This document shows, piece by piece, positions 31,343-35,872 of a DNA stretch of 64,000 nucleotides. Within the stretch, counting starts at the first letter, position 1, and the number at the start of each line of letters is the position of its first letter. The translations under genes and the position numbers were made by a program. Source of the DNA: Schmidtea polychroa (lineage: Eukaryota). Where the stretch lies: assembly GCA_044892525.1 (NCBI GenBank), contig CM097885.1:17486001-17550000 (forward strand), written 5' to 3'. Below the pieces are notes generated by a model. It saw only the letters and a list, made by a program, of their open reading frames with translations. It was not told the DNA's origin and ran no database searches.

Positions 31343-34300
31343 TTGATTCGTGTAAGCAAAGGCAACACGATATCATATTTTCATTGTAGACATCAATCCA
31401 ACCAAGTCAATCCAGAACCAGCTCAAGAGGAATCCAGAGAATATACAAACAACCCAGGAAAAGCAATTCAGAACCCGCACAAAGGAAGACAATATCAAAA
31501 CCGAACTCGACCAATTCAGCAGACGCTAACCGTAGAAAATCCACGTGAAAAGACAGAAAAGAGTAAAAGGAAAATCACGGATAAACCCAACCTTAGATCT
31601 TCAAGTAAGCCAGGAGACGTATTATTTTCAGGAGACGAATTAGATCAACTCAAAAGAGGACGATCATTTAGGCAGCAGAGAGGAATATCACAAGGAGCAA
31701 AAAGACCCCACAAAACACCGATATACGATCGAGAAAACCCCACAGCCGGACATACGCCCAGTCGATCTAGAAGCAGAGAAAGCCTATCCGATATAACAAA
31801 CAACCTAACCGGGTCAACAGAAGAATTATCCGTCCATAGCTTAGCTACATCGCTGGAAAATTTAAAAGAAATAATAGAGTTTCAAGAACCAATCAAGATG
31901 AATGTAGCAAAAACCGACGAATATAAAGAAAAATTTAGAGGCGAACCGTTCAACGGGAATGCGAACAAGTTGGCAACGTTCATAACAAATTTTGAAGTCT
32001 ATATCGATGTGTGTGGATGGACATCCGAAGCAATTAGTAAACGAATGCCTCTGTTTTTGTGCGATAGCGCACTCGAAGTGTATCTGGAAGCAAAAGAAAG
32101 AAATACGAAATTAGACAACTGGGAAAACATCAAAACATTTTTGAGAAAAACATTCGGAGCCAGCAAACCGATAAATCAAGCGTTAGGTGAACTGGCAAGT
32201 AGAAAACAAAGAGCAAACGAGTCAATTACGTTATACGCAAGTGAATTGCGAAGATTGGCAAAGAAGGCCATGAACGGAAACTTGCCGGAGGAAAACTTAA
32301 TTGGGTACTTCATAGAAGGACTACGCCGAGAAGAGGTAAGGGCCTCGGTGGGATGTCAGATGTGTAAAACACTAGAAGAAGCTATAGATTGGGCCACAAG
32401 ATGCGAACTACACCTCCCGGCACAAATGAATGTCATGCAAGAGGAAGGAAGAATCGCAACAGCAACGGTGAAAACGGAAAATGGAGATAACAATAATCAT
32501 GAACCAAAGATGAATCAGTTTATACCAGGTGCGCATCAAATTTTCAAACCACCACAAGGACGATCAAACGGGAATAACAGTGAACGCAACAACTCGAACA
32601 ATGGGAACAACTTTAATAATCGACGAAATATGAACGATAACAAACAATGCCGAACATGCGGTAAACCAGGACATTGGGATAGAGATTGTTACCGAAACGC
32701 AAATTGCAATAGGTGTGGACGACGAGGACACACGGAAAATATATGCCAATCAAGAGGATGTTTTAACTGCGGGCAACTAGGTCATATCTCAAGAGACTGT
32801 CGAGAAAGGAGCCAACAGCAACGACCACCACAGCGAAATAATAACTATGCACCAAATCCGCAACGACAAAGTAATCCTAGTGAGGGAAAGCAAATGAATG
32901 TGATGCAAGAAATTTCACAAATGAAGCAGATGATGCAACAAATGATGAGACCGAGACAAGAGCAAGTACCACAACCAACCCAGAATATACGCATGATGAG
33001 AAGCACCGAGAATCTTAACAATTATGAAGTGCAACAACATGCACAAGAATGGCAAAGACTACAAGCTGAAGAAGAAAGGATAAAAAGAGAGCGAATCCAG
33101 CAGCGACAAGAACAACCACTACGAATAAATATGATGAGGATGGTAAAGGAGATAAAGGAGCAATATTGTTACAATTACGGTAAAAATCCAAGAGTTGTAC
33201 CTATGAGCGAACCAGAGAAACCGAAAGAAACAATTCCAGCAGCAAAAAAGGAAAATTCAACAACACCGCTAAAAGGAAATCAGAGAATTCAGAAAATATT
33301 TTGGAAAAAGATAAAAGATAAAATCGAAAGAGAAAATGAGCAAACAAAAATAGAAGCAGAAGCAGAAAATAACGAAAATGAAAAACAGATTAATCATCTA
33401 AAGCATAATATGATACGAGAATTAGACTCAGAGGAGCTAACCATACTCGAGAACAAAAAGTTAAAGAAAGTACCAAGAATGAGAAATTTACGAATTAATA
33501 TGATGAGGACAACAAAGAAGGTGTTGTCAACAGATGATGATGAGGATTATGTGAGTAGCCTTGGTGGAGAAATGTTACAGTTAAATGAAAATATCGACCA
33601 ACTTAGAGAAAAGATCGGAGCAGATGAGGATGAAAGAGAAAGCGACGTGACAAGCGAAAGCGAAGACGAGAATATCGAAATGAAATTGAGAAAAGAAAGA
33701 GAAGAAGCGATAAAACAAGTAAAGGAAATACTTCCAGTGGTAGTAAGAAACCAGGAGTTCATCGACCTTATACCATATAAACGCTTCTTACAAAAGATAA
33801 TGAAACTAGAAGGAAACGAAAAAGATCTAATACCAAACGAGGAAAAAGCGATAATAAAGAAGTATATGGAAAAAATGAAACAAGCGGAGACAACACGCTA
33901 TGTAATAAAAATCGGAACGAGTAAAGGACTCGAGAGAATATGGATAAAAAATGCAGTCACAGACGAGCTTTTTGATTGGATAAGAGAACATTTGGGCAGC
34001 TCGAGAAAGAAAGAGTATTTATATCAATATCAAGGAGAACAAATTAAGCCAGACATGCACCTAATAGATGCATTGATCTGGCCAGGAGAAACTCAAATAT
34101 TGAAATTGTATAAAGAGAAGCAACCAGCAAATATTCACGAATGGGCTAAAGACGCCAAGGCCGAGTATGATTTTAACATCAAGCTGAAGCTGGAACAAAT
34201 AAAACAATGCACCTTGCGACGAAATCTAGATAAATTAATCAAGCAAATCCAAGAACAAGTTGAGGATAACTGGGATTTGCTCATAACAAGACGAACTGCA

Positions 34301-35872
34301 GACATGCATGAGCTAATGAGCCGATTACGAGATACAGAATTGCTCAGGATGAGTGATTGGAGAACCATAAATTTGATCCACAAATACGGAAGATTAAAAG
34401 AAACGCAACCGCGGAAATTAGAAATAACCATATGGTTACCAAACGAGGAGAAACGACGAATAAAGATGAGTAATCAGAGTACGGTGGATGACTTAGTATC
34501 AGAGATAAACCGAGAGATAACGGAAAAAGTACGAAGCGAGAGTAGCGACGGGATGATAGATGATGTAGTCATGATGTACGATAAAATAATATTACGGGCC
34601 GAAGACGACACCTCGCTAAGCGAAATGGGAATGTGGGATAATCATCAAATCATCAGAATATTGCCCATGGACGAATTCCGAACAAGAGATATAACATACC
34701 AGAAAGAAATACGAGACAGGATGAAAACACTATATCAAAAATCAGTAGAGATAATTGAAATCCATCAACAGTGGCTAAAAGAAAAAGAGCTTCAAGGGAA
34801 AATAAAGAAACTAAGTGTTAGATCCTGCAGACGAACCCCATGGGAAAGGATGTGGAATGCGGAAAACAAAGAATGGGAAATCAGGAAAGGGATTTTCGTG
34901 GAAACAGACATTGGTGAGATAGAAAGCGAATCAGAAGAAGAGGAAGATGAACCTCCAAAATACGAAGAGGACGAAATAAAATCGACATCGGACGACGAAA
35001 GCGAAACGGATGTTACGTCAGAAAGTGAAACGGAAACCAGGCATATTCATGCGATGAGAAAGAAGGAACGCGAATACGCCGACATAGACGGGGAAGAGGC
35101 AAAAGAAGCGAGAGAACGAGAAGAGAAGGAAAGATATAAACAATTAGGTGATATCTTAGCAACGGGAGCAAAAAATCAAAAACGTCAAGTGATAGCATTG
35201 GCTAACATCCTCCTAAAGACATCAGAGAATATCCACAATCTAAGAGAAATGGCGAAAGCGATTGAGGAATACCGACAATATAACGAATGGTACCCAGAAC
35301 AGCTAGAACAAATTATTAGGAAATGGAGAAACCAAGAATGGGCACAAGATACCCAGGAAAGGTATCGTATCCGAGTCAAGTATCCCGACAAAAGCATTGA
35401 GGATATAGAAGTACATCCAACAACAAAGATCAGAGAGTTAAAAAAGAAATTAGCATACGAAACTCCATTTCACCTACAACTATTCGGAAAATCGTTGGAT
35501 GATAATGCAGATGTCGGAATAACACCCATGAGATTGGGGGAGATCAATGTATTGACAATGGCAGAAACATTGGGAAAACCGATTAAAAGGAAGAGCAAAT
35601 CCAGTAAACCTACGAAAGGTAGCTTGAGTACACCAAGCCCTAACAAAGTAGCGAGTAAATCGAATGAAACCGAGGAAATCGAGGAAATTATATTGGAAGA
35701 CAGCGATGAAGGAGCTGGAGAAAGATCACCCATTCTGGTAAGATGGCCGACAGGAGCCGAAATATGGACAACAAGCCAACCGTCAACTAGCTATCAGCAG
35801 CCAAATAAGCTGAGTATCGAGGAGATTATCGATAATACAACAGAAACCGAAACCGACGAACAATCCCAATGA
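31343..35872 (+). CDS. gag: ORF1: Gag (capsid, three CCHC zinc knuckles) with a long extension carrying ubiquitin-like domains; first ATG at 31898
   Basis: EPFNGNANKLATFITNFE..RKQRANESITLYASELRRLA capsid motifs; CRTCGKPGHWDRDC, CNRCGRRGHTENIC and CFNCGQLGHISRDC (32648-32800). The listed start is TTG, so the true start is uncertain. Confidence 0.92.
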   Translation: MIRVSKGNTISYFHCRHQSNQVNPEPAQEESREYTNNPGKAIQNPHKGRQYQNRTRPIQQTLTVENPREKTEKSKRKITDKPNLRSSSKPGDVLFSGDELDQLKRGRSFRQQRGISQGAKRPHKTPIYDRENPTAGHTPSRSRSRESLSDITNNLTGSTEELSVHSLATSLENLKEIIEFQEPIKMNVAKTDEYKEKFRGEPFNGNANKLATFITNFEVYIDVCGWTSEAISKRMPLFLCDSALEVYLEAKERNTKLDNWENIKTFLRKTFGASKPINQALGELASRKQRANESITLYASELRRLAKKAMNGNLPEENLIGYFIEGLRREEVRASVGCQMCKTLEEAIDWATRCELHLPAQMNVMQEEGRIATATVKTENGDNNNHEPKMNQFIPGAHQIFKPPQGRSNGNNSERNNSNNGNNFNNRRNMNDNKQCRTCGKPGHWDRDCYRNANCNRCGRRGHTENICQSRGCFNCGQLGHISRDCRERSQQQRPPQRNNNYAPNPQRQSNPSEGKQMNVMQEISQMKQMMQQMMRPRQEQVPQPTQNIRMMRSTENLNNYEVQQHAQEWQRLQAEEERIKRERIQQRQEQPLRINMMRMVKEIKEQYCYNYGKNPRVVPMSEPEKPKETIPAAKKENSTTPLKGNQRIQKIFWKKIKDKIERENEQTKIEAEAENNENEKQINHLKHNMIRELDSEELTILENKKLKKVPRMRNLRINMMRTTKKVLSTDDDEDYVSSLGGEMLQLNENIDQLREKIGADEDERESDVTSESEDENIEMKLRKEREEAIKQVKEILPVVVRNQEFIDLIPYKRFLQKIMKLEGNEKDLIPNEEKAIIKKYMEKMKQAETTRYVIKIGTSKGLERIWIKNAVTDELFDWIREHLGSSRKKEYLYQYQGEQIKPDMHLIDALIWPGETQILKLYKEKQPANIHEWAKDAKAEYDFNIKLKLEQIKQCTLRRNLDKLIKQIQEQVEDNWDLLITRRTADMHELMSRLRDTELLRMSDWRTINLIHKYGRLKETQPRKLEITIWLPNEEKRRIKMSNQSTVDDLVSEINREITEKVRSESSDGMIDDVVMMYDKIILRAEDDTSLSEMGMWDNHQIIRILPMDEFRTRDITYQKEIRDRMKTLYQKSVEIIEIHQQWLKEKELQGKIKKLSVRSCRRTPWERMWNAENKEWEIRKGIFVETDIGEIESESEEEEDEPPKYEEDEIKSTSDDESETDVTSESETETRHIHAMRKKEREYADIDGEEAKEAREREEKERYKQLGDILATGAKNQKRQVIALANILLKTSENIHNLREMAKAIEEYRQYNEWYPEQLEQIIRKWRNQEWAQDTQERYRIRVKYPDKSIEDIEVHPTTKIRELKKKLAYETPFHLQLFGKSLDDNADVGITPMRLGEINVLTMAETLGKPIKRKSKSSKPTKGSLSTPSPNKVASKSNETEEIEEIILEDSDEGAGERSPILVRWPTGAEIWTTSQPSTSYQQPNKLSIEEIIDNTTETETDEQSQ

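Follow-up and report, generated by a model that had tools for sequence, protein, structure and literature searches.

The window analyzed here comprises 64,000 nucleotides (nt) of the Schmidtea polychroa genome (assembly GCA_044892525.1, contig CM097885.1, positions 17,486,001 to 17,550,000 of the forward strand), and it contains a young Burro-type Ty3/gypsy long terminal repeat (LTR) retroelement, the Gag-Env-Pol polyprotein of which carries three copies of a module that consists of a helical segment of approximately 75 amino acids (aa) followed by a ubiquitin-like domain (UBL), located upstream of a Bcl-2-like domain (Table 1). One of these domains, UBL3, is a genuine beta-grasp as judged from its structure model, and the same fold is likely, but not proven, for UBL1 and UBL2. 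Tentatively favored for the UBLs is a role as adaptors that cannot be conjugated, carried by accessory proteins predicted to be released and directed at the ubiquitin-dependent cell-death signaling of the host.

The UBL3 fold was modeled with AlphaFold2 (AF2) on a 12-row alignment, in which the seven rows from distant families cover module 3 only and UBL1 and UBL2 are represented by five rows from close and sister families. The resulting UBL3 model had predicted local distance difference test (pLDDT) values of 57-77 per 10-residue block and superimposed on ubiquitin-like structures (VIA) with a Z of 11.2 and a root-mean-square deviation (rmsd) of 1.4 Å over 70 residues, with ubiquilin, Rad23, BAG1, and parkin among the structure matches. 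Foldseek matched the model to ubiquitin, ISG15, and SUMO, and its identity to the matched ubiquitin-like structures is approximately 20-26%. Moreover, the Atlas matches of UBL3 are ubiquitin clusters at 0.90, and comparison with the Pfam ubiquitin family gave E=0.0033, which falls below the cut-off. A single-sequence AF2 prediction of the UBL region was discarded (mean pLDDT 37.7, no Foldseek match at E<=0.001).

It appears quite improbable that only UBL3 is ubiquitin-like, with segments 1 and 2 adopting different alpha/beta folds and resembling it in pattern alone. When the frame was scanned against host ubiquitin with hhalign in 63 windows, UBL1 and UBL3 were the sole two peaks, UBL1 with a score of 19.7 against at most 14.5 for the windows beyond these two domains; hhalign gave P=0.004 for UBL1, and the AF2 model of UBL1 displays the complete beta-grasp order of strands and helices. 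UBL2 was matched to UBL3 by hhalign (P 6e-4 to 9e-4), its named Atlas matches are ubiquitin and Rad60-SLD clusters (0.89-0.90), and its counterpart in the sister family weakly matches four beta-grasp Pfam families. On the other side stand the low confidence of the models (UBL1 at pLDDT <55, and UBL2 with only a beta-beta-alpha arrangement to be seen), the lack of any match of UBL1 when searched alone in the PDB and of any ubiquitin match of UBL2 there, the absence of an hhalign match between UBL2 and host ubiquitin (P 0.33), and a distant-family profile that misses both segments. Of the three beta-grasp domains of the initial annotation, which had called UBL1 the weaker third, UBL3 is upheld, and the other two, with their weak matches and low pLDDT, are likely. 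The peptides quoted in it are all present where it placed them (RYVIKIG of UBL1 at 33896, LEITIW and HQIIRI of UBL2 at 34418 and 34643-34660, and YRIRVK of UBL3 at 35363).

The repeated unit was delineated by comparison of five families from the same genome, namely the window family (including subfamily L048), its sister family (L041/L042), and the compact families L031, L036, and L053/L058; modules in the relatives were chosen by eye and subsequently aligned. The five families carry 3, 3, 2, 2, and 1 modules, at least one of which is located directly upstream of the Bcl-2-like domain or env in all five. The sister family also carries MATH and BIR-RING domains, with a TRAF-type MATH in frame between UBL2 and module 3. 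A profile of the 15 UBLs of these families retrieved ubiquitin, ISG15, and related single domains from the PDB (best single-domain E 4.5e-7), the UBLs of ubiquilin being among its matches, and a profile of six distant-family domains found module 3 over both helix and UBL with 22.7 bits, compared to a maximum of 6.4 in 300 shuffles. Paralogous UBL modules within the element are 13-19% identical, whereas orthologs in the sister family are 40-41% identical, and the triplication is therefore, by these alignments, ancient and older than the split from the sister family. Duplication of a module, as originally proposed, is upheld for this helix-plus-UBL unit, but the duplicated acidic linker (ESDVTSESE, ETDVTSESE) that had been taken as its sign spans 44 nt at 77% identity with E=0.055 and was dropped as proof.

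The helical segments have no match in Pfam or the PDB. Their similarity to TFIIS N-terminal domains (TND) does not stand out from chance, with hhalign scores of 10.9-13.4, obtained with a 4-sequence host profile, next to a block-shuffled null with its 95% level at 13.3, and the likeness of H3 to huntingtin repeats (Z 10.0, rmsd 3.2 Å) lies within the chance range for helical bundles. No homologs were found outside the S. polychroa genome among 7983 and 7985 candidates or among 1.84 billion representatives, and module alignments are consequently drawn from one genome only and shallow. A host gene pair with tandem UBLs is not supported as donor: its UBLs score 10-14 bits on the element profile, but the host ubiquitin profile gives them as much as 27.6, and none of the exons among 1872 frames from 90 kb gave a match to the helical or the Bcl-2 profile.

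Comparison of the window family with its subfamily yielded dN/dS ratios (nonsynonymous over synonymous substitution rates) of 0.019, 0.027, and 0.042 for UBL1, UBL2, and UBL3, and 0.018 for the capsid, values that derive from a single subfamily pair with synonymous sites near saturation. In the same comparison the UBLs are 92-93% identical, the capsid 93%, and the linkers 60-78%. The capsid-like dN/dS indicates that the UBLs are functional for the element and under strong purifying selection at the level of the capsid.

The initial annotation had placed the segments in Gag, which is misleading. In the window copy they lie in a frame of 1509 aa, and the Pfam domain series from capsid to ankyrin (scan of 13 window proteins) is split over two consecutive frames. 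The intervening stop is a defect specific to this copy: 19 further copies were fetched, and all 15 of them that could be anchored by the motif have an open frame at the position equivalent to 35870. Of 615 candidates, 150 were scored, and a hand count gave approximately 52 with open frames of at least 4,700 aa. A separate Gag open reading frame (ORF) with a programmed readthrough stop was rejected on the basis of these 15 copies, and the UBL segments therefore belong to one Gag-Env-Pol polyprotein.

Processing of the polyprotein was predicted with a cleavage-site profile for which 8 canonical junctions of two families served as training set (capsid end, protease start, RNase H/integrase boundary, and integrase end). 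This training set was chosen to escape circularity, and the sites at aa 594 and 717 were held out. A protease-site-like motif spotted by eye recurs 10 times against a shuffle mean of 1.2, its pattern having been defined after the fact. Just downstream of the aa 717 site, an SLGG motif (33557-33568) that precedes the modules is kept in the family, the subfamily, and the sister family. Based on the predicted sites, the mature capsid and nucleocapsid would lack UBLs, and UBL1 and UBL2 would be released as a piece of approximately 515 aa, which in the sister family would also contain MATH. UBL3 would share a further piece, probably membrane-anchored, with the Bcl-2-like domain.

In the proposed mechanism, the element's own protease would cut the UBL modules from capsid and nucleocapsid, and the two freed pieces would present their UBLs as binding adaptors to host ubiquitin-dependent cell-death signaling. 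They would cooperate with the TRAF, RING, Bcl-2-like, and ankyrin cargo of the element, by which the producing cell would stay alive. This role is favored because MATH (in the sister family) and Bcl-2-like domains are in-frame neighbors of the modules, because the element brings along TRAF, RING, and ankyrin cargo, and because the IAP of Burro1 has been reported to protect stem cells from apoptosis (cited in PMC13465017). More doubtful, though possible, is a wider proposal, according to which an undescribed, anciently repeated helix-plus-UBL module of planarian Gag-Env-Pol retroelements is released by their protease in the form of dedicated effectors, one a scaffold of UBL1 and UBL2 (plus MATH where present) and the other a protein that joins UBL3 to Bcl-2 and is anchored in the membrane. 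With the TRAF, RING/IAP, and ankyrin cargo, these would amount to a ubiquitin-signaling kit encoded by the element itself, through which host cell death would be rewired and the survival of stem cells possibly supported.

Several observations weigh against an adaptor role of released UBLs. In the window family, a low score was obtained for the site that precedes module 3 (aa 1234), the protease-site profile also matches inside folded domains, and the proposed anchor at 36689-36751 misses the hydropathy threshold. The folds of UBL1 and UBL2 are indicated by weak profile and language-model matches and low-confidence models; the six-domain distant-family profile does not find modules 1 and 2, and an hhalign comparison of the three helical segments with one another gave no significant homology. 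Finally, the compact relatives retain 1-2 modules, and the one compact copy analyzed over its full length (17.7 kb, two modules) has no sense-strand ORF of at least 130 aa besides the polyprotein. It thus lacks TRAF and IAP genes of their own, and a core role in assembly would account for this equally well.

Such a structural role is the main rival, albeit a rather unlikely one: the UBL modules could bind the element's own proteins and tether the capsid or ribonucleoprotein to the membrane-anchored envelope part during assembly. Besides their retention in the compact copy, the constraint at capsid level, the position of the modules between nucleocapsid and envelope anchor, and the presence of at least one of them directly before the Bcl-2-like domain or env in every family would agree with this, and a precedent exists in the coronavirus nsp3 Ubl1, a GG-less ubiquitin-like domain of a protease-processed viral polyprotein that binds the nucleoprotein (PMC8769549); this is an analogy, and no homology is claimed. 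The range of module numbers from 1 to 3 and the insertion of MATH within the module region of the sister family speak against a tether.

The surface and C-terminal features of the UBLs bear on a further alternative, the suggestion of the initial annotation that built-in ubiquitin mimics recruit the endosomal sorting complexes required for transport (ESCRT) or act as decoys. As that annotation had stated, no segment ends in GG: the sole GG of the 1509-aa frame, at 33563, lies upstream of all three UBLs, none of the three has a GG after its last strand, and among the family rows a GG occurs in 1 of 15, several residues downstream and not conserved. Judged by this lack of a terminal GG in all three, the window UBLs cannot be conjugated and are not type I modifiers. 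They resemble the integral (type II) UBLs of ubiquilin, Rad23, BAG1, and parkin in being GG-less domains of clear (UBL3) or likely (UBL1 and UBL2) beta-grasp fold inside a larger protein, and differ from these in their low identity (approximately 15-25%), the lack of conservation of the I44 patch, and the helical segment in front. ESCRT and proteasome receptors (UIM/UEV/UBA) read the L8-I44-V70 hydrophobic patch of ubiquitin. In the alignment, ubiquitin I44 is replaced by Gln in UBL3, by Tyr in UBL1, and by Met or Tyr in UBL2 (the register being uncertain), with Ile in 1 and polar residues in 6 of the 15 family domains, and the L8 position is Pro in UBL2 and UBL3. ESCRT mimicry is unlikely in view of the missing terminal GG and the patch that is not kept, and the predicted cleavage would moreover leave the modules outside mature capsid and nucleocapsid.

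Some room for mimicry is left by the hydrophobic residues at position 44 of UBL1 and UBL2 and by the PPxY motif between the modules. Furthermore, the precursor bears the UBLs before cleavage, and Gag-fused ubiquitin can stand in for late domains (PMC3751857). Recruitment of ESCRT for budding by mimics on the uncleaved precursor nevertheless appears improbable, since the identity to ubiquitin-like structures is low and PPxY, which is absent at the equivalent place in the sister family, would bring genuine ubiquitin, by which no mimic would be needed. Least probable among the functional alternatives are proteasome-targeting tags, by which the spacer left over from an equimolar polyprotein would be removed, or decoys that would occupy the ubiquitin readers of the host, in line with a single frame yielding all parts in equal amounts and with the ubiquilin matches of the profile, but at odds with the receptor-binding patch not being conserved and with helices and UBLs kept at capsid level, beyond the needs of a disposal tag. 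As a separate observation, a YPxL motif is present before the protease (38963-38974), also in the subfamily, and a YPxxxL is similarly placed in two compact families; either may represent a late-domain motif.

The window element corresponds to the giant gypsy-like planarian LTR retrotransposons Burro/GYPSM1 (PMC6431247), which are likewise >30 kb, with one frame of approximately 4,800 aa in the order Gag-Bcl2-Env-Pol-ankyrin, three CCHC knuckles, and TRAF/RING cargo. The window element exceeds 30 kb with multi-kb LTRs, has a frame of approximately 4,800 aa (interrupted here by one stop) with env between gag and pol, and carries BCL2-like (below the cut-off), ankyrin, MATH/TRAF, and RING cargo. 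Compared to Burro1, the window family has no MATH in its polyprotein frames, its TRAF being encoded by an ORF of its own, and a scan of 13 window proteins gave no BIR match; the sister family, with MATH and BIR-RING, fits the published description of Burro1 better. For Burro, a single Ubi2/SUMO-like motif has been reported between MATH and BCL-2, which is the position of UBL3; the available text of PMC6431247 names this motif once and describes neither three domains nor a helix-plus-UBL repeat. Other accessible texts cover GAG-ENV-POL elements in Platyhelminthes (PMC13524379, the main text of which does not mention ubiquitin) and the control of BURRO1 RNA by PIWI (PMC8532177). The three domains, the helix-plus-UBL repeat, and the predicted release were not found in the literature searched, with no mention returned by a word search of the available text of PMC6338049; supplements and primary Burro reports, which may describe them, were outside its scope. 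Hence, the family and one UBL are known, and anatomical detail, the repeated helix-plus-UBL module, and its predicted release are added. Planarian genomes are rich in Burro elements, and a protective effect on stem cells has been reported for one gene of their cargo. Once defined as separate, strongly constrained, and probably released proteins, the UBL modules become units open to testing instead of a single line of annotation. With the family and one such domain already in print, the gain is one of detail unless a binding partner in the host comes to light.

In-frame fusion of ubiquitin-fold units to Gag is also seen in BEL/Pao-type retroelements of the same genome, in multi-copy DUF1759 Gag-protease frames (L024:3674-7861, L021:5464-9513, and L044:3550-7008). 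These frames start with captured scraps of host genes (DSP phosphatase; EAP30 and a proteasome subunit), followed by one or two ubiquitins. Unlike the window UBLs, these are N-terminal, near-authentic ubiquitins (PF00240, E 1e-23 to 1e-53) that end in GG in the L024 and L021 translations and are probably cleaved by host enzymes, and this GG-ending family was ruled out as a relative, being a different, DUF1759-type element.

Table 1. Features of the Burro-type retroelement in the window (positions relative to the first nucleotide of the window)
Feature	Position	Strand	Remarks
Whole Burro-type LTR retroelement	24452..55010	+	30.6 kb; TG...CA ends; target-site duplication CTAT
5' LTR	24452..28625	+	1 mismatch versus 3' LTR over 4175 aligned nt
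Accessory ORF with terminal RING finger	29083..29580	+	PF13920, E=3e-8
Capsid	32048..32329	+	Retrotrans_gag, PF03732
Nucleocapsid	32645..32803	+	Three CCHC knuckles
Predicted protease site, aa 594-598	33122..33136	+	Held-out rank 3-4 of 4796 windows
Predicted protease site, aa 717-721, between Gag and modules	33491..33505	+	Held-out rank 3-4 of 4796
Acidic stretch 1 (ESDVTSESE)	33638..33664	+	
Helical segment H1	33671..33886	+	Family unassigned
UBL1, likely beta-grasp	33890..34117	+	hhalign, AF2 model
Helical segment H2	34160..34402	+	AF2 model, family alignment
UBL2, likely beta-grasp, with insertion of ~12 aa after helix 1	34412..34666	+	Atlas, hhalign
PPxY motif, between modules	34952..34963	+	25/25 family frames (one is the window counted twice)
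Acidic stretch 2 (ETDVTSESE)	35003..35029	+	
Possible protease site, aa 1234-1238	35042..35056	+	Outside top 22; aligned sister-family site ranks first in its protein
Helical segment H3	35105..35347	+	Four-helix bundle in model
UBL3	35354..35566	+	Beta-grasp fold (model)
In-frame stop, this copy only	35870..35872	+	Frame open in other copies
Bcl-2-like domain	36413..36565	+	PF00452, E=0.033, under cut-off
Moderately hydrophobic stretch before glycoprotein	36689..36751	+	Putative signal/anchor, below hydropathy threshold
Viral fusion glycoprotein core	37502..38521	+	PF24664, E=3e-72
Protease, reverse transcriptase, RNase H, integrase core	39089..41920	+	Pfam; ankyrin repeats downstream
TRAF-like accessory ORF (RING, zinc fingers, MATH)	46341..47780	+	Pfam
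3' LTR	50837..55010	+	LTRs 4.17 kb

Elsewhere in the element, each LTR contains a 254-aa ORF without a Pfam match (27325-28089 and 53710-54474), the 5' leader contains a tandem repeat of approximately 80 nt (30157-30670), and the region 47995-50605 holds three accessory ORFs without a confident Pfam family, of which two are coiled-coil-like and the third has two hydrophobic stretches. The window stretch is covered by contigs of 4 runs, which is not informative on expression. At scattered loci elsewhere in the genome, numerous short frames (150-180 aa) are Bcl-2-like and contain an internal TAG; they apparently belong to another repeat family. The retroelement is flanked by inverted repeats of 780 nt (99%) at 23668-24447 and 55801-56580, on the basis of which it was probably inserted into a DNA transposon or a miniature inverted-repeat transposable element. 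Finally, positions 1-7923 of the window show a foldback-like arrangement, in which long inverted repeats of 2253 nt (99%) and 990 nt (100%) are nested.

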